A stretch of DNA of 20,000 nucleotides, taken from assembly GCA_900617105.1 (NCBI GenBank), contig UYFQ01000182.1:56703-76702 (forward strand), written 5' to 3'. The position numbers and the translations under genes were made by a program. This document shows positions 2,836-20,000 of this stretch, piece after piece. This DNA is from Hydrurus foetidus (taxonomy: Eukaryota). Below the pieces are notes generated by a model, which searched no databases, was not told the origin of the DNA, and saw nothing but the letters and a program-made list of their open reading frames with translations. Positions within the stretch are counted from its first letter, which is position 1. Each line of letters opens with the position of its first letter.

Positions 2836-2840
2836 CTCCC
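2836..2840. repeat. 5-bp target-site duplication CTCCC of the copia (other copy 8440-8444)
   Basis: CTCCC immediately precedes the 5' LTR and immediately follows the 3' LTR. Confidence 0.95.
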
Positions 2841-3156
2841 TGTTGGAGTATCCGGAGAAAAGACACTGCTGTAGTTGTATAGTATATGTATGGAACCCGA
2901 CGGACAGCGGCGTGCATCATAGCGCACGTACCGCTGACCGTTGGATGTGTGGGCTCGTGGAGCCATCCATTCACCTGTCTTCAACATGGGTGAAAACGTG
3001 CAATTGTCTTGATATGTAAAGCTTCGTTGCCGTCTTGATTGATGCCGGTGCACAAGTTTAATTATCAAGTAATTACGCAACACAAACCTATTTTACGAGC
3101 CTTGGGTCACCGGTCGCATTAGTCACAAAGCATCCGGATTTAGAGAAATCCCAACA
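2841..3156 (+). repeat. 5' LTR (316 bp)
   Basis: Begins TGTTGG and ends CCAACA. No difference from 8124-8439 found on base-by-base reading. Confidence 0.97.
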
Positions 3157-3169
3157 TAATTAAACTTGT
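3157..3169 (+). promoter_or_regulatory. Non-tRNA primer-binding site, complementary to LTR 3052-3064 (putative self-priming PBS)
   Basis: TAATTAAACTTGT directly follows the LTR terminal CA, lacks the TGG of tRNA-CCA PBSs, and is the exact reverse complement of ACAAGTTTAATTA (3052-3064). Confidence 0.7.
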
Positions 3170-3181
3170 CAGCGCATCGAG

Positions 3182-6100
3182 ATGCCGCCGAAGAAACAAG
3201 AAGAACCAAAATCAGGTGCAGAGCAGTGCATGCTGAGAATCGGACGTTACAACAACGTGGTGCAATGGAGGGAAGACATGCAGAACGAGGCATGCGGCCT
3301 GTACGGGATGACAGGCACGTTCTTCACCACCAACAAAAGCTACGTCCATCCGTATCCTCGCGAGGAGGATTACAATCCCACCTTCCAAACAGTGGAAACG
3401 GATATTCAGACGGCGGGTACCGAAAATGAAGACGAGGAAGACGAATCCGTAGACCCTCGATGATGTCATGATCGGACCACAGCCTCCACCGGTGCCTCCT
3501 GTCGTGTACTCCGAGGCACTCATCGACAAGCTGCGAGCCAATGCATTCGAGGGACGCCGCAAGGCAGTCGAAACGCAAAAAGTCGATGAGCAAAAGCTCT
3601 TTCCACTAATGTGGTCGAGAATGTCAACAGGGTCCAAATCCAAGGTTCGTGAGGAGCCAGGGTTCGAAGCGGCTCGCCTCAGACTGGACAGTGTAAAACT
3701 GTGGGAGTACATTAGAAGGAGTCATTTAACTCACATCTACGGCGAAGATGATTCGATGAGAGCAATGAATGTGCATGAGCAGACCATCAGGTACAACTAC
3801 CTCAGACAGGGTGAACGTGAGGTAATTGGAGACTTCAAGACACGGTTCGATAACCAGGTATCGGCCAACAGAGGTGTTGGTATGACAGAAGTCGAAGAAC
3901 CGATTAGGGCAATCGACTTCCTCAGTAAGTTAGACCCGAAAAGGTATACCGGTATGTTGACCCTTATGCGTAACAATGCCGTACAAAACCTGCCGAATAG
4001 CTTCCCTTCTACCTTAGCCGGAGCCTACAGGGTAGCGTCATCCTGGACCAGCTCGAACGGAGGAGTCCCCCTTGGCGCCGAGCAACATTCCGCGTTCTTG
4101 ACCGATTCTTTGATGAGCACAAAGGAAAAAGTCGCGGGAAAAGGATCGAAGGGAAAGACAGCTGGGACAAAGAAGAAAGCATCGTCAGTGATATGCTTCG
4201 TATGCGGAAAGACGGGACATTTCGCTAGAGACTGCGATCAGCGCAAAGAAGGAGAGCATGCGCTGCACACCAACATCGAAGAAGATGCAGAGGAAGATGA
4301 CGAGAGTATCGAGGCGGCTTTCATCACGACAGATGAAGTTGCCTTGTTCACTCAAAGTCACGTGCTGTTGGACAATCAGGCGTCAGTTAACATCTTCTGT
4401 AACTCCGCGCTTCTCACCGACATTAGGAAATCACAGAACGCGATTCTCCTCAAAGGAGTTCAGTCTGAAGCAAAGGGGGTCAGAGTCGAACAGGAGGGCA
4501 ACTTTGGAGACATCGGACCAGTATATTTCAGTCGCGGAGCAACAGCTAACATACTCTCCTTCGCAGCGATGGCAGACAGAGGTGCCGAGATCAGCTACGA
4601 TCATGAGATTGGGTGTTTCACACTTCGACCAGCTGGAAGCAAGACGAAGTATCACTTCAGCAGACAGGACCTGCCAGGGTCGGCGGGGAGATTCTATGTA
4701 TGGGACGCGAGCAGCGTGGCGATACAGGAGCAAGCATTGGTGACGACCGTCAGAGACAACATGGCTCGGTTCACGAAACGAGAGGTTGCATCGGCAGCAG
4801 CAGCCAGAGAGATGCTAGCCAGGATGGGTTATCCACCGGTCGAGATGGCTATCGCAATGATCAGAGGAGGAAACAACTTCAGCGTCTCTGAAGCCGACTT
4901 CAGAAACGCCCACACAATCTGGGGCAAATGCCTCGCCAGCCTTAGAGGAAAAACCCACAAGAAGTCTTCTCCAGTGCCGGACATTTCAGTGACACCAGCA
5001 CCAGCGCAGCAGCACCAAGTCCTAAGCGTGGATATAATGTACCTAGAGACAACAGCGATACTTATCGCTGTATCCACCCCTCTGGATATGACACTTGCTG
5101 TGAGTCTCATCCGACTAGACACTGATAAGACCTCCCGTGCTGCTGCTGTGGTGAAGCCAGCGTTGAACGAGATGATATCAATCCTCAAGTCCAGGAACTT
5201 CATGGTGCAAGTCATCATGTCCGACGGAGAAGGTGCTATAGGGAAAATGAGACTGGATCTACTTGCCATGGGAATTGAGGTGGATGTCAGCGCAGCTGGC
5301 GGACATGTAGCCAGAATCGAGCGACGGATTCAGATGGTGAAGGAGCGAGCACGCGCTCACATCAACGGTAGGATCCCATTCACTCCAACCGAACTCTGTC
5401 TAACCTATCTAGCTCTGTACTGCGTCTCCCGCATTAACTGCCAGCAGTCAGGATCAAGGCCAGGGGGTCTTTCGCCGAGGGAACTATTTTCTGGACGGCG
5501 GGTTGACGGGAACCTGGACTTTCGTGCCGCCTATGGGGATTACGCCGTCTGTACAGTACCTAACACCAACAACACTATGCTATCTAGAACTGAAGACTGC
5601 ATTGTCATGCTGCCTACACACAGCAGAACTGGATCATTCAAGATGCTGTCATTGGCAACTGGCAAAATCGTCACAAGGGACCAATTCAAGATACTGCCAA
5701 TGCCACAGTCAGTCATCGCGACGCTGAATGCCATGGCAGTCAGAGAAGGGAAGAAAATAAATAAACTCAATTGCATGTGCTTGATGAACTACTATTCGCG
5801 AACAGTCTCGACAAGTCTAAAATGCCACATTTCATTACCAACCCCCCACTCAGGATGCACTTGTCGACGCCGGATCGAGTGACCAACAACCCACACTCAC
5901 CGACCTACAATCAGCAGACAGCATTTTCGAGATCCCTACTTCCGATGTGGGGGGGGGGTACCAGTCGCAGCAGCGGAAACAACTGATTTACCCGATGAAA
6001 TCGGAACTGAGGCCCTCGAACAGATGAGGGTGCAAGACAGCGACGTACTTACACCACCATCACCACCACCACTCGCACCATCGACTGAGCCCGACGACAC

Positions 6101-7980
6101 TCCAGTCGACACACCTGCACTCGACAGCGAATCAGCCCCACAGCAGCTCGCGCACTCAGTGCAATCGCCGGTGAGAGAGCCACGCAGAGCACCAGCACCA
6201 ACAGAGCGAATGGTGACTAGGTCAGCCCGTACGAACGAGGACGCGTTCGTGACAAGCACGGAGGGTACCACCGCGAGACTAGCAGGCGGAGCACAGTCGA
6301 TGCACACCATAGACGAAGTGATGAAACGCCACAGGGAGGAAATGGGCAGGAGCAGCACAGCCAACATCAGCGTCAAAGAAGCATTTCGCACCAGAGGGGA
6401 CGAAGCCAAGAAGGTCATCGTGTCAGAGCTCAGGCAGATGATAGACAAAAGGGTATGGGCACCGGTGATGGGGGGCAAGCTATCAGCGATGCAGAGAGCA
6501 TCTACTATTAGGTCGTCCATGTTCTTGAAGCAGAAGAACAACCCGGATGGAAGCTTCCTCAAGCTCAAAGCTCGACTAGTCGCAGGGGGTGACCAGCAAG
6601 ACAAGGATCTGTACGAAGACCTATCCTCCCCAACCGTGTCCACGTGTGCGGTATTCACCCTGTTGACCGTAGCAGCACATGAGAAGCGACGCGTCGCAGT
6701 AGTAGACATAAGCGGAGCATATCTCAACGCAGACATGACGATGGATGTGCCAGTGCACATGCGCCTTGACCGCACCATGACAGATATCATCATCAGCATC
6801 GATCCAAGGTACGGTAAGTACACAGATGCAAGAGGTGGAGTCACAGTACATCTCAAGAAAGCACTATACGGTTGCGTAGAGAGCGCAGGACTGTGGTATG
6901 AGAATTTGCACGCCACCATGCTCGAACTGGGGTACGTACGGAATATCAGCGACAAATGCGTATTCAACCGAATAGGCCCAGACGGGCACAGTGTACTGCT
7001 GCAGTGCACGTCGACGACTTACTCATCACTAGCAAGAGCAAGGAGACCATGGCCCACCTAGTCGACGGACTGCGCAAAAGGTACGGTGCAATCACATTAT
7101 CGCATGGGCCTGTCATAAACTACCTCGGTATGGCGATAGATATGCATGTACCAGGACAGGCGATGATCACCACCACAGGGTACTGCGACGAAATAGTCAA
7201 GATATCAGGAGTGAAAGGGGTAGCGCGGACACCGGCCACAGAGGGACTGTTCGAGACCAGGGAGGGTGCTGGTGCAGTAACAGAGCCGGTGCGAGTCTGG
7301 TTCCACAAAGTGGTCGCCATGGTGCTCTACTTGGCCAAGCGTACCAAGCCGGAGTGCCTCGTAGCTGTGGCCTTTCTAGCCACGCGAGTTCACAAGTGCA
7401 CGACAGACGATGTCGACAAACTACAGCGCTTAGTGCGGTACATACACGGGACTAGGGACAGCGGCGTACTGCTAAGGCCGGGTGCGGGGGGATCTCGGTA
7501 CGGCTATTCGTGGATGCATCCTACGGGGTACACAGCGATGGGAAGTCCCACACGGGGAGCTGTGTGGTAATTGGCGATGTCGGGGCCGTGCACTGCCGGT
7601 CATCAAAGCAGCTGATAGTGACAAAGTCGAGTACGGAGGCGGAGCTGGTAGGGTTGTCCGACTCAGCTAACCAGGGTATTTTCGTCCGTACTTTTCTCAT
7701 TGCACAGGGATACAAAATGGAGCCGGTGACCATCTACCAGGACAACCAGTCCTGCATGGCACTAGTGGAGCGCGGGAGATCCGGAGCGGAACGCACGCGC
7801 CACATCCAGATCCGTTACTTCTGGGTGAAAGAGCGGGTGGTGACCGGAGAAGTGCGTGTGGAGTACCTACGCAGCGAGGACATGTACGCAAACGTGCTGA
7901 CCAAGCCGCTCCAAGGATCCCAGTTCCAGAGAGAGAGAGACGGGCTCACAGGGTGGCCCACGGTCGAGGGAAAGAATTAA
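3182..7980 (+). CDS. Copia Gag-Pol polyprotein (~1600 aa once repaired), split by ~6 single-base frameshifts in homopolymer runs
   Basis: Zinc knuckle CFVCGKTGHFARDC (4194-4235). Protease VLLDNQAS (D at 4371). Integrase core SVDIMY / SDGEG / HVARIERRIQMVKER. RT motifs KLKARLVAGG, VDISGAYLNA, LKKALYG, VHVDDLL (7007-7018). RNase H motifs VDASY, SSTEAE, YQDNQS, RHIQIRYFWVKE, ANVLTKPL. ORF pieces: 3182-3463, 3468-5882, 5771-5986, 6024-7061, 6956-7570, 7510-7980. Confidence 0.93.
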
Positions 7981-8123
7981 GGGTGCCGGAGGCAGATGCA
8001 CTGCACCATTCGAGAACACTTAGTTAGACATTACTGCTTGCAAAACAATTCATATTTATTTTATTGCTGACATGAAAATCCTATGCGTGCCTGGGTGCTC
8101 AACTACTGCGTGACTGTTGGGTG

Positions 8124-8439
8124 TGTTGGAGTATCCGGAGAAAAGACACTGCTGTAGTTGTATAGTATATGTATGGAACCCGACGGACAGCGGCGTGCAT
8201 CATAGCGCACGTACCGCTGACCGTTGGATGTGTGGGCTCGTGGAGCCATCCATTCACCTGTCTTCAACATGGGTGAAAACGTGCAATTGTCTTGATATGT
8301 AAAGCTTCGTTGCCGTCTTGATTGATGCCGGTGCACAAGTTTAATTATCAAGTAATTACGCAACACAAACCTATTTTACGAGCCTTGGGTCACCGGTCGC
8401 ATTAGTCACAAAGCATCCGGATTTAGAGAAATCCCAACA
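8124..8439 (+). repeat. 3' LTR (316 bp)
   Basis: Identical copy of 2841-3156, followed by TSD CTCCC. Confidence 0.97.
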
Positions 8440-8444
8440 CTCCC

Positions 8445-8492
8445 GAGGGTACAACCGCGTTTTTACCGAAACCGCGTTATTTCCACCACTGG
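8445..8492 (-). repeat. Right TIR of pogo-like element (48 bp)
   Basis: Exact reverse complement of 275-322, followed by TATA. Confidence 0.95.
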
Positions 8493-8894
8493 TATATGTG
8501 CGCTGTAAATTATTTCAAATTTCAAACGCGAGCACATTACCGTAAACGTAATATGTCATGAGAATTTATCAAATAATTATTGGGATCATTCTCAGCAGGG
8601 TCCGGTTAATTAATTAATTCTCAGGAAGATTCTCACCACCCTATATTTTTAATTAATTACATTTTATGAAGATGCTGGGATACAAAATCATTATTTCGCT
8701 GTCACGTGACCTTACAGCTGTGACTGCTTCCAACAGGATTTTTTTTGCTGACGCAATTTTTAAAAAAATGCTAAAATAAATAAGAAATACATGAAATCAT
8801 GAGAATTCTTGATCGATTAGGATCAGCGCATAATTAATTTGTCAAGCGAATTACACGAATCAAATTTGAAGAAGATATCCATGAATACGTTAAC

Positions 8895-9559: not shown

Positions 9560-10150
9560 CTGTGTTAAAAAATTGGGCAGCATTTAGATACTCAAGTTTA
9601 TTTGATATCAGATAAAGCACCCAAAAATCATGATCAAAATGCACATTTTCATGTACTTACTTTATCTGTACCGTACGAAAACGATAGAAATAACTTTTAG
9701 CGTACGATCACCTAAGTTATAAAATTGCGCGGCATTTAGGTACTCAAGTTAATCGGGTAAAATTAAATCGCGCATTGGTCATGATAAAAGTGCACGTTAA
9801 AATGCACTTAAATTTTATGTACCGTTTGAGAAAGATATGGCACAAAATGTGCTGTCCAGAGATCCCTGACACTACTTGTAGCACGGCACCACCTGTGTTT
9901 TAAATTTGGGCAGCATTTAGGTACTCAAGTTAATCGGGCAAATTTAAATCGCGCATTATTCAAGACAAAAGTGCATGTTATCATGCACTTGGTTCACGTG
10001 TACCGTTTGAGAACGATATGGCACAAAGTGCAACGTTTAAGAACGATATGGCACAGAATGTGCTGTCCAGAGTTCTATGAGACTGCTTCTAGGAGAGCAC
10101 CACCTGTGTTTTAAAATTGGGCGGCATTGAGGACCTTAAATCAATCGGGT
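9560..10150. repeat. Degenerate tandem array, ~3.3 units of 152/181/211 bp
   Basis: Anchor GGCRGCATTTAGRTACTCAAGTT recurs, with CATT at 9581, 9733, 9914 and 10125. Shared blocks TGTACCGT, GATATGGCACA and GCACCACCTGTGTTTTAAA. Confidence 0.85.
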
Positions 10151-10863: not shown

Positions 10864-11024
10864 TGCAGTATACAGCGTTGACACGGTAGTCAAAGCGTAG
10901 CATGTATGCCGAGCGGTCGTGGCAGCGGTGTCCCTATTTTACTTTGCAGTATACAGCGTTGACACGGTAGTAAGAGCGTAGCGTGTATGCCGAGCGGTTG
11001 TGGCAGCGGTGTCCCTATTTTACT
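10864..11024. repeat. Tandem duplication, 2 x 81 bp
   Basis: TGCAGTATACAGCGTTGACACGGTAGT...GTCCCTATTTTACT starts at 10864 and at 10945, with ~4 substitutions. Confidence 0.92.
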
Positions 11025-11449
11025 ACCACAGCGGTCGCGGGTTCGAATCAGCTCCGGTGGCCGGACGCCTAATATTATTCTCAGTAATTTTTTTTTCAGT
11101 TAATTAATTCCTGTACTTCTCTCTCACCACAAATTTTCAGTAATTAATTCGTATTTCAAATCATTCTCACGAAAACCATTCTCACGACATATTACGTTTA
11201 CGGTAGATTACTGTTTACTGTTTACTGTAGAAATGGAATAATAGTTCAGCATGAAGGACATGCGACAGCCAAGTCAAAGATGGCTCAGAGCGGGCTTCGG
11301 AAGTCGACTCTACCTGTTACATGCATATGCGCAACAGTCAAAACGATGGAATTGAGCTACAGAATGTCAATGGCGGCGAGTGGATAATGCCCCTTCAATC
11401 AAGATAGGGTACAGCAATGATTTTGGGTCAGTTTCATTGAGACGCCCCG

Positions 11450-15576: not shown

Positions 15577-16653
15577 GATCCCATGACATCCCATGACACC
15601 AGTTCTAGCAAATAGAATAGATTGGCGACGTCATCTTACTGTACATATCGATAGATGGATGACTCGCGTGTTTTGCTGTGCTATGCTGTACCGTACTGTA
15701 TTATACTGTTCGCACATCGGCACCGAAGTTGGTGAGGAAGTCCTCGTGACTGCGAAATACAAAATACAGAAAAACTGTTCACTTTTTTCTTTTATCTGGT
15801 TCGTACGGACTGAAAGGTGTATGAATGTTCCATGATGCGAAGCACGTAGCGAGTGATGTGCATTACACTCTGAAGTGCAGTCCGTCACCAGTAATTCGTC
15901 ATTAGCACAGCTGAATTCAGTCGAGCCGTCTCTGTCTCTGTGTGCGATCCTACCCTGCCCAATCATGGTGTATCACAACAGAGTGTCCATACGAGAAAAT
16001 GCTCAAAGTTTCGTGCCACTGAGCAGTCTGCTGACCTGACCGGCTGTCCCAAGGTTCCGTTCTGCTGTCGATATGACATGATACGGTACGATGCGATATG
16101 CTGATTCATCGTATCGGCAGACAGCTCGGTATGACTTGACCGTGAAGTGGCAGAGGGGCAGTCGGCTGAGAGGAAGAAAATGGCCTGTCATGCAGATGCA
16201 TGGCGTCCTGAATAAGTTTGTGTGTGCGACTGCGCTGCTTCTAGCACTGCAGCTGCTCAGGTCTGTCCGCACACAGATGACACGGTAGTCAGTGCAGTGT
16301 GGTGTTGTACATGGCACAGCACTTGCTCGTAGGGGGAAAGGAACCACCCTAACGAATATTGAATCGAATCAATTCAACTACTTCATTGTGGCTCAAGATG
16401 TAACCGGTAGATGTTCTTAGTGACAAAAAAATGGCTATGAAATGACTGTACAAGATATTCAAATGGTGACAAAAAACACGTAAAAAAGGTCTATACGCTG
16501 ACAGGAGAAGAGGGAGTTGCAAAGGAAAATGTCCTCTTCTTCTTCTTCTTCTAAAGATGTGGCTATCTCTTCTATCTCTCTTTTTCTCTGCATTCTGCTT
16601 CGTCTTTCACGCTGCTCGACAGGACAAGATACCACGGAAGAAGATCGTTTCTG

Positions 16654-19600
16654 TTAGCCGGAGACGTTGGCGAGAAGGTCTCTAGCTCTCGACCCTAGAC
16701 GTGACGCGAAGGCATCTTCACTGAGACCCAAGTGGAGTCTCACGTCATGTTCCTGTAAACAGAAGAGCGCAGTGCAGGAAAGGGGAAAGGAGAGAGATTC
16801 TTCAGTTGAATTGCTCATTAACTTCATCGGCCAACCGACTGACTGATTGATAGATAGACTGACACACACACGTACGCACGTACGAACCTTCAAGGCTGCT
16901 CTGCACTCCTTGTCCAGATCCTTCGAGAGTCGGTCCAAGTTCACTACACTGGCGATGCCGTGCAAAGCGCGAAAATACCCGACCTAGTCCAGAGAAAGGG
17001 AAGTAGGAGACATGAGAGATATTGGAGAGAATGGCATTGTCTGCCTCTGTCTCTGTGTCTCCCTCTGTCTCAACTGATACTGCATGAATGCTAGAATGAC
17101 ATGCTGCATCTCTCTCTCCTTAGCATGCGAACGGACACGAACATGACCACGTACTTAAACGCGCTCATCGTCCCTTACAATAGGCATAGGTGGGATTGCA
17201 TGAAAGGGACGAAGTGAAGAGTCTAATGTCTAATACGATAGAAGGAACAGAAGTGGAGACATACGTAGAAGTGACGTGACTTGGAGTAAAGGGAGTCCAT
17301 CATCCCCCCCTCCTTACCCCTTCCACTTCCCTTCCTTACTCAATTACTCCCTCCCTCGCTCCCACCCCCATCTTGACTCCCTCACCTGATTGGGTATGAA
17401 TCCCTGTTTGCTGTTGGGGTCACAGGCCTTAAGCAGCTGCTTGGTGACCAGCACGCGGTCTTCGTTGCTCAGTGCGGGATGCATCGCCACCATGCGACCC
17501 CAATTCTCAAACCAAGGCCCTAAGTAGCAGGGCATGGAGAGGGGGGAGGAGAAGAAGATGGCATGAATAAATATGTGAGAATAAGAGAGAGGGGGAGAGT
17601 TCGCGGCACTGCTGATATTCAACAACGGGTAGTGCAGGGGCGATCTCCATTGCTGCGCACTGCCCTCACGTACAGCACATTACTTACCCAGCGGTAGCAT
17701 GAGGTCGGGAGTCATTCTAAGGCACTTTGGCTCCCTCAGGGGGTAGTGTCTGTGCCCCTCCGCACTCAGCAGTTCCTTGTACACGATCTTGGCCCTCAGG
17801 AACTCCCCTCCAAACCTGTCATTGCGCTCATGCGCGAGACGGGAGAACTTCAACTTCTGTTTCTCAAACACAGAAATGCCATTAGCATCCATCTGCAAGA
17901 TAGAGTAGAGAGTCGATTTGATGATTGATGATTGGATTCAATTGCTTGCACTTCATAGGGGAATCAGTGCATAGGAAGAAATGCTCTTTAGGGTAACCCC
18001 ACTGTGGCCTTGGTTACTCGTCTTTCTTCTCATTCCAATACGTCGGATTATAATGACTTTGACATTAAGAAAAAAGAGAGAGAAGTGACTGTATCTTCGA
18101 CACTAGACTGTCTCTCCCTAAATTCTCACTACCTTTCAATCTATTTTTCTCCCTGCCCTTCTCCCTCTCCCTCTCCCTCTCTTTCGTCCTGTGTCTCACC
18201 TGCCAGTAGTTGAGCCCTTGATCCACGTCACCCACATTGTGCGTCAAAATGGCAGCCAGCTTGAGCAGCGCAGTATCTGAGGCCACACTGGGTCTGAGCC
18301 CTCTGACGTACTTGAAGGCAGCGGCCTCTCTGCTCAGCTCCCTGCTGATCAGCTCCTCCGCCTCGCTGGCTAGATCCTGTCTGCCCAGTCTGTGATGTGA
18401 TGTGATGTGATGTGGTGTTGTGCGATCAGATGAAGGCAAAGATGTGGTGACTTTTAAAGAGCTGACGATTCCATTTGTAATCCGGAGATTCTCCCAAAGT
18501 CCGCCTCGAATCGTTGTTTTAATCATCAGAATATCGCTTGATTGCATCCTCCTTCCCGATTCCTATTTTCACCACCTTGCAAACACATACACACAAACCC
18601 ACACGCACACACATATGCACCTGAGGAAAGCCCCCCATGCGCCCCCAAGCACACCTAGCCACTCTCCATCGTGACCGCTGATGGGGTACAGCTTGTCTAT
18701 CTCGTTGATGCGCATGTTGCGCTTGGAGACCGCGTCCACGTCCCAGTGCAGCGCGTTTTTCAGCACCTTGAACTGGGCCTCTATCACCCCAGGGCTGGGG
18801 TCCATCCAACAGTGACCCCTGATCTTGGAATCTAAAGGACGGAGAGATGGGCAGACAGATGGACGGGTGAATGGATGGTGAGGTACAGTGAAAGAAGGAC
18901 TGTCGAGTAGACGTAATGGAGTGTGATGAGAGCAGTGCGAGAGTTGAGAAGGCTCATCATAATAGGAAAGAAAAAGCGATCCCCATGGGATCACGTAGTT
19001 GAGATGGGATGGGGAGCTGTGCGAAGTGAAGTGAAGTCATTTCAAGTCGAGTTGAGTGAAGATGTGCTGCCACATATGATTGAGTTTAACCATACAGCTT
19101 GACACAGGCGATCGCTATTTCTTAAAACGTGTGTCCAGGGAAGTTCGAGAGATCCAAGTAGCTGAGAGCAGAGCAGGCATGGTGAGCTACTCATGAAATA
19201 ATTTGACTGACTCACACTTAAAATAATATAATATAATTCAGTTCAATCAATTCTAATCCAATCTAATCTAATATCATTGAACCCAATTATCCATTGGACG
19301 ATGAGCGTTGAGATTAAAATTCAAACGAGAACCTTAAAATGGATTCATGAGTAAGTCAATTAGAAGGCTCACTGTGCATTATGCATAGTGAGCCTTAGTA
19401 AATAGTAAACATAGACGCAGCGAGGTAAGTCTCAACAATGTTCACATGCCATCTGTTGCAACAGAATAAAAACAATTCACAACATGTCCGACATGTCCGA
19501 TATAGTTTTACCAAGTAAGGAGATTCTATGTGCAACTCAAGAGTACGCAACTTGACAGTTGTGTGTTGTTCTGGTGGCATGGTAATTCGAAGAGAAGAGA

Positions 19601-20000
19601 GATGAGAAGGGAAGAGAACTTACCGACATCGGTTGGCACGAAAGTGGCCACGGTGCAGAAGTGACTCGCCATGCACAGCGCGAAGTAGTCAATCCTCTGG
19701 TCTTCAGTTGGCGTATTTGTGTTCGGAATGTGATCGCTGTTCTTCAGAATTCTCAGCCAGCCAGAAGATCCCTCACTTTTCTCAACGGCACTCATCTCCG
19801 AAGCATCCAAAACAGAATTGATGGCGCTAGTGACGGATGCACTCGGGGCACTCGCACTCGTGAATTCCTCTGCTTCATCTCCCGAGTCATTGGAGTCCCT
19901 GTTCTCTGACGCGCTGAGTCTGTCCGCAGCTGACGTGTAGCTCGCAGCAAAGCTGTTCAAATCGTCGAAGTCGTCGTCCTCCTCGATGACGATCCGAAGC
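16654..20000 (-). CDS. Uncharacterised multi-exon protein, 5' end outside window; exons >20000-19624, 18831-18621, 18389-18200, 17892-17688, 17519-17386, 16983-16888, 16752-16654
   Basis: All six introns are GT-AG and the phases join (1,2,0,1,0,0) into one stop-free frame: ...YFALCMASHFCTVATFVPTDVDSKIRGHCW...ISGHDGEWLG...LTHNVGDVDQG...AEGHRHYPLREPKCLR...LPLGPWFENWG...VGYFRALHG...LLANVSG*. Confidence 0.9.

Follow-up and report, generated by a model that had tools for sequence, protein, structure and literature searches.

Directly after its 5' long terminal repeat (LTR), the copia retrotransposon in the window (the whole 20,000-nt stretch of DNA analysed here) carries a primer-binding site (PBS) that is perfectly complementary to a segment inside that same LTR, and distant relatives have the same arrangement written in different letters. 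The best reading of this arrangement, to which we give a probability of roughly 0.8, is that these elements would prime reverse transcription as Tf1 does, with the front end of their own RNA and no host tRNA. The initial annotation had put forward this reading together with a claim of novelty for Ty1/copia elements. Covariation in seven of seven relatives that can be examined supports the first part; the second falls, self-priming having been predicted earlier for the TAR lineage.

The window element and its LTR/PBS complement

The complete LTR element spans 2841-8439 and is 5.6 kb long. With its flanks it comprises the following features.

2836..2840, + strand: 5' target-site duplication (TSD) CTCCC, matching 8440-8444
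2841..3156, + strand: 5' LTR, 316 bp, TG...CA, 100% identical to 8124-8439
3013..3020, + strand: TATA-like octamer TATGTAAA (weak), 32-39 nt 5' of the predicted start
3052..3064, + strand: predicted self-primer, which would form the first 13 nt of the RNA; perfect complement of 3157-3169
3157..3169, + strand: predicted PBS, adjoining the 5' LTR, with neither TGG nor a half-tRNA-Met signature
3182..7980, + strand: gag-pol in copia order (Gag with a CCHC knuckle, PR, IN, RT, RNase H), from Pfam, tblastn and a frame map
8119..8123, + strand: short purine-rich stretch at the PPT position before the 3' LTR, resembling the same position in the relative L005
8124..8439, + strand: 3' LTR, in which the primer segment recurs at 8335-8347
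8440..8444, + strand: 3' TSD CTCCC, matching 2836-2840

With its identical LTRs and 5-bp TSD, this copy is a young, recent insertion. The TG...CA ends of the LTRs and a TSD in the 4-6 bp range are those of a Ty1/copia element, and the protein content agrees. Pfam matched zf-CCHC and RVT_2, the latter above its cut-off in the C-terminal third of the polyprotein, which places RT after the integrase, in copia order. The integrase was assigned by motifs (in the 3453-5882 frame) and by a below-cut-off rve match in the relative P0042, and the element also encodes an RNase H domain. Its pol shows six frame changes with respect to single-ORF relatives, three of them at homopolymer runs of 6-10 bases, which single-base indel errors in the assembly likely explain; the combination of identical LTRs with frame changes suggests long-read indel error more than decay. 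Intact relatives are plentiful: 58 longer ones, of 1430-1835 aa and on contigs of mostly 5-6 kb, are single ORFs, the best of them 86% identical across the Gag-IN part, and an RT-RNase H search gave 2030 matches among the 7992 candidates scored. A PDB search with the relative P0001 returned the zinc knuckle as its sole match, an Rfam search gave one match at chance level (E 0.72), and no tRNA genes were found within the 20,000-nt window.

The initial annotation had described a perfect 13-bp pairing between 3157-3169 and 3052-3064, and an exact reverse-complement comparison confirms it: 3052-3065 and 3156-3169 pair throughout, giving a helix of 14 bp in which 3065:3156 is the fourteenth pair and 13 bp use only bases outside the LTR on the PBS side. 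Its other readings of this region hold as well. Neither TGG nor GGTTATG occurs in 3157-3181, the TATA-like octamer is present, and the leader is short, with the gag ATG at 3182, 25 nt beyond the LTR. In 5000 dinucleotide shuffles of the LTR, compared with the 22-mer at the LTR end, the longest complement was at most 12, and 4920 internal 22-mers had complements to the LTR of at most 9; when the complement was anchored at 3157, a length of 13 was reached in none of 1000 shuffles, with a maximum of 9. The LTR/PBS complement in the window is a real feature, far beyond chance.

How much of this helix is common to the family can be judged from near copies, public contigs placed on the window at 80% likeness. 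Among these related copies, 74% of the depth (run X1) has T>A at position 3167 and 58% has G>A at 3168. In some of them one or two extra A follow 3168. No variant at 3157-3166 or at 2998-3080 is found among the variants listed (40 of 303), and the same listed variants include no change at 3053-3054 that would match those at 3167-3168. Most near copies differ at 3167-3168, and thus only a 10-bp core appears invariant on the PBS side, the LTR partner of which is 3055-3064. The outer 1-3 bp of the 13-bp helix may be specific to the window copy or its subfamily. The family is found in public freshwater and sediment runs (20 of the 23 listed rows, from 11 studies), and the summed depth of the LTR bins is 50-700 times that of the flank in two runs, a rough sign of many related copies rather than a copy number.

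Covariation of the PBS with the LTR in distant relatives

A Gag profile search identified 13 distant metagenome loci (28-37% Gag identity) and one genome locus, L014 (48%); four scans of viral contigs confirmed no relative. We treated a locus as testable when it held both the PBS and the LTR upstream of it, as is the case in seven of the 14 (L001, L002, L004, L005, L007, L012 and L014). The sequences of L003 and L010 begin at or just before the PBS, L006, L009, L011 and L013 are without a gag start, and in L008 the PBS is preceded by an A-run and unrelated DNA, with no LTR. The break in L008 (1-160) falls exactly at the LTR/PBS boundary.

Covariation between PBS and LTR, which the initial annotation had named as a check, is what these loci display. 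In all seven, the PBS is a perfect complement of a segment of the element's own LTR, beginning with the first base after the LTR, and the letters of the pairing have changed. The complement measures 12 bp in L001, L002, L007 and L012, 13 bp in L004, 10 bp in L014 and 15 bp in L005, where it was read from the 3' LTR, the 5' LTR being cut by the contig end; for L001, L002, L004, L012 and L014 the LTR ends come not from paired LTRs but from the CA before gag, set after the inverted repeat had been seen. The length observed at each locus was reached by none of 1000 shuffles in any of the eight sequences, the window included.

These eight sequences represent only about six families, three of them in one subclade, and among those families there are five distinct PBS cores, with no PBS of the eight starting in TGG. 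Such a set does not correspond to the 3' end of one tRNA. A cross matrix of the window and six loci (L002, identical to L001 in this region, was omitted) shows how closely each core is tied to its own element: a PBS matches its own LTR over 10-15 bp and the LTRs of other families over 4-7 bp. The exception is L004, L007 and L012, which match one another over 11-12 bp and belong to one subclade in which the PBS is mostly common. When this subclade is aligned with L001 and L002, all 12 helix pairs are held in all five rows, and three of the 12 have changed on both sides. The LTR segments of the window and L014 are likewise homologous by alignment; they differ by a substitution and a 2-nt gap, and the PBS mirrors both.

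Several of the relatives that share this self-complementarity are distant from the window element. RT-RH identity to P0001, a close relative of the window element, is 35-46% for L001, L004, L005 and L007, at patristic distances of 2.3-2.9, and the self-complementarity therefore spans a wide lineage. These distances come from a FastTree phylogeny of about half of 138 proteins and five loci, in which P0001 stands proxy for the window; midpoint-rooted and built with no outgroup, it speaks to spread only and not to origin, and a large middle portion of it is represented by protein only, with no DNA.

Three of the relatives have further features of their own. L001 (about 2985-3398) and L007 (1781-2167) run from the end of RNase H through a single LTR into a PBS and gag, a layout that could reflect either tandem copies with a common LTR or the collapsed assembly of a circle. 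Tandem insertion through PBS homology has been described for Tf1 (PMC11042837). L014 (G001:C278) is the 5' end of a eukaryotic copia element on a contig assigned to a bacterial MAG, and the contig is likely a contaminant of that bin.

Proposed priming mechanism and its alternatives

In the Tf1-like scheme, transcription would start no more than a few bases from 3052, and the first 10-13 nt of the RNA would fold back to pair with the PBS. The R-U5 sequence between them would form a loop of ~90 nt with side stems; fold prediction gives this loop as multi-stem. The RT/RNase H would then cut the RNA after 3064, as in Tf1, and the freed 3'-OH would be extended from 3156 into U5. For Tf1 itself, the first 11 bases have been described as pairing with the PBS, with RNase H cutting between bases 11 and 12 (PMC7175516). 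If a retained primer is copied during plus-strand synthesis, the PBS could moreover be overwritten with sequence templated by the LTR segment, which could yield the lock-step changes of PBS and LTR. About half of Tf1 cDNA is described as keeping a copy of the PBS at its 3' end (PMC11042837), whereas Ty1 and Ty3 are said to inherit the PBS instead (PMC7472051).

Predicted folding is consistent with the helix at the center of this scheme. With the RNA folded from 3052, 12 of the 13 helix pairs have pair probabilities of 0.92-0.95. The helix still forms, with probabilities of 0.87-0.99, when folding begins at 3030, 2950 or 2841, and thus folding does not place the start. The 10-bp core alone is weak, at -6.5 kcal/mol and a pair probability of 0.01 when folded from 3055; across five cognate PBS/LTR pairs the predicted duplex energy is -7.9 to -11.7 kcal/mol. 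Over the whole region, folding z scores are -1.66 for the window and -0.77 for L014, neither of them exceptional, and -1.8 to -3.5 for four distant loci. An RNAalifold run on the window together with L014 did not return the helix; the PBS side was misaligned.

Other clues bear on the position of the start. A C|A step is expected at transcription starts from the initiator consensus, and the 5' edge of the LTR segment coincides with such a step in seven of the eight sequences, being one base off in L014. At least 200 nt of LTR lie upstream of the segment in the window (211), L005 (200) and L007 (308). When upstream regions were compared, a TATA-like box was not evident in L014, the closest testable relative.

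One alternative is that the primer is a host tRNA, tRNA half or other small RNA. The LTR/PBS helix would then have a role in regulation or packaging and cover the PBS until the primer displaced it, much like the U5/leader helices known from retroviruses or the GalEa conserved hairpin site in fungi. Copia PBSs that match internal tRNA sequence without TGG do occur, for example the half-tRNA-Ile site described for Bianca (PMC6317226) and the internal tRNA-Lys site described for FunCo1 (PMC5445492). The first 10 PBS bases, without a variant among those listed while 3167-3168 vary, would also suit a host primer, and the protein extension of the 52%-identical relative P0011 is compatible with the same PBS start. 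The comparison between families argues the other way: PBS letters differ from family to family and follow each family's own LTR, in all seven relatives the end of the helix coincides with the LTR edge, and five cores would call for five different tRNAs. We therefore regard a host primer as unlikely.

Somewhat less probable again is a primer drawn from the 3' LTR copy of the segment (8335-8347), whether from the RNA 3' end, from a nearby cut or from a second packaged RNA. The segment is present in both LTRs and the helix forms wherever the RNA starts, so that, under this reading, transcription could start somewhere other than at the segment. What favors the 5' end over the 3' copy is the initiator-like C|A step in seven of eight sequences, together with the TATA-like box of the window, and the one known mechanism, that of Tf1, employs the 5' end. 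Chance or an assembly artefact, such as a short complement in A+T-rich DNA or an inverted duplication local to one copy, might be entertained for a single A+T-rich sequence with likely indel errors and with outer 1-3 bp that differ in most related copies, but it is effectively refuted by relatives from separate assemblies, with the observed lengths absent from 1000 shuffles per locus in eight of eight sequences.

The Tf1-like scheme assigns the cut to RNase H, and the existence of intact single-ORF relatives makes the cutting of an RNA:RNA duplex by a copia RNase H testable. Two observations concern this domain. The last RNase H motif of the window element (about 7885-7910) has Asn for Asp (ANxLTK). 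Asn is also found in 118 of 143 RT-RH domains, including 53 of the 55 from the close clade. The self-complementary but distant L001, L004, L005 and L007 keep the Asp, and thus the Asn change does not track self-priming. Separately, P0091 (1834 aa, 29 cluster members) matches PF01693 above the cut-off at residues 483-523, upstream of RT; it is possible that this RNase H1 N-terminal (hybrid/dsRNA-binding) domain is relevant to the handling of an RNA duplex primer.

Known systems, origin and neighbouring DNA

The claim of novelty for Ty1/copia is wrong because Neumann et al. (2019; PMC6317226) predict self-priming for 89% of 203 elements in the TAR lineage of copia, which includes Houba and Osr-1, on the basis of a complement to the element's own 5' LTR of at least 10 bp within 0-5 bp of the LTR end. 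The same paper cites an earlier proposal of self-priming for Houba and Osr-1. Like TAR, the window element is a Ty1/copia element with a PBS complementary to its own 5' LTR, a 5-bp TSD and, in its intact relatives, a single gag-pol ORF. It differs in length, at 5.6 kb where TAR elements average 6.3 kb, and in a host that, from its gene context, would not be a plant. None of 11 full-length relatives matches the Pfam models Retrotran_gag_2, gag_pre-integrs or SH3_retrovirus, and their RVT_2 scores are only 39-108 bits. Typical plant copia elements usually match these Gag and integrase models. Among Atlas look-alikes of Gag and RT, five of the six rows shown are commonest in Bacillariophyta and one in Ascomycota, on few taxon records. 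Together, the Pfam profile and the Atlas taxa tentatively point away from TAR and plant copia.

The arrangement of the PBS is also that of Tf1/Tf2 (Schizosaccharomyces pombe), Tj1, the Tf1/sushi group and the plant Tcn1 clade. In all of these it lies directly after the 5' LTR and is complementary to a segment inside the LTR, with no tRNA site, and the lengths are similar (11 nt in Tf1, 10-15 nt in the window lineage). By the measure of a complement of at least 10 bp between PBS and own LTR at the LTR end, the window (13 bp) and its relatives (10-15 bp) would fall in the same mechanistic class, for which cleavage and priming have been shown in Tf1 and are predicted in the window lineage. In contrast to the Tf1 group, the window element has the Ty1/copia domain order, an RVT_2-type RT and no chromodomain match. 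Membership in Tf1/sushi itself was rejected on RVT_2 with copia order, as opposed to a Ty3/gypsy RT and the order RT-RH-IN.

The element also recalls the CoDi elements (CoDiI/CoDiII), divergent copia of about 5-8 kb with short TG/CA LTRs (PMC2806351), a likeness that is drawn from descriptions and the Atlas look-alikes. In its main text, that paper does not discuss the PBS or tRNA. The host of the window element, whose genes are rich in introns, is perhaps a heterokont and possibly not a diatom. As for the position of these groups within copia, plant lineages lie in branch 2. CoDi-like clades have been placed in branch 1 with Ty and GalEa (PMC5445492). The fungal GalEa elements are also without a tRNA PBS and have a Conserved Hairpin Site at the PBS position, whose partner lies 12-41 bp downstream, with no complement in the LTR (PMC5445492); in the window lineage, unlike GalEa, the partner is 77-244 nt upstream, inside the LTR.

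The window lineage likely extends a known mechanism to diatom-like or protist copia, where a search of titles and abstract openings, with subscription literature poorly covered, found no published self-priming in CoDi or other protist elements. To our knowledge, experimental demonstrations of self-priming are limited to Ty3/gypsy elements (Tf1), and predictions to a single plant lineage of copia. An origin independent of both TAR and Tf1 is plausible. We put at slightly better than even the broader proposition that a large, deep-branching protist copia lineage self-primes throughout and does not descend with Tf1/sushi or TAR, as a third origin of tRNA-free priming or a relic of an ancestral condition of LTR elements, with the PBS rewritten in each cycle from the end of the element's RNA. 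If this is true, either the tRNA has been abandoned repeatedly, with unrelated RT/RNase H enzymes, or self-priming is old; the hypothesis of an old state has been proposed before (PMC3601003). There would be practical consequences as well. Some pipelines are described as discarding LTR candidates that lack a recognised PBS and PPT (PMC7466962), and such filtering may miss self-priming elements. Self-priming elements would also be expected to escape silencing by tRNA fragments.

The copia element is nested in a DNA transposon bounded by 54-bp perfect inverted repeats (269-322 and 8445-8498), where it adjoins the right repeat on the inner side, and a TA duplication is likely. A 661-aa ORF within these repeats (410-2395) has no Pfam match at E 1; it has an acidic motif that we take to recall pogo/Tc1-type DDE transposases. 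Further along, a second inverted-repeat pair, of 28 bp (8538-8565 and 11178-11205, 2.6 kb apart), encloses A+T-rich DNA with tandem repeats of 150-210 bp and 81 bp (9560-10149; 10864-11024), and this unit is probably another non-autonomous DNA element. An intron-rich host gene occupies about 16600-20000 on the minus strand and includes a 64-aa exon with 10 homologues, one of them from EukProt.
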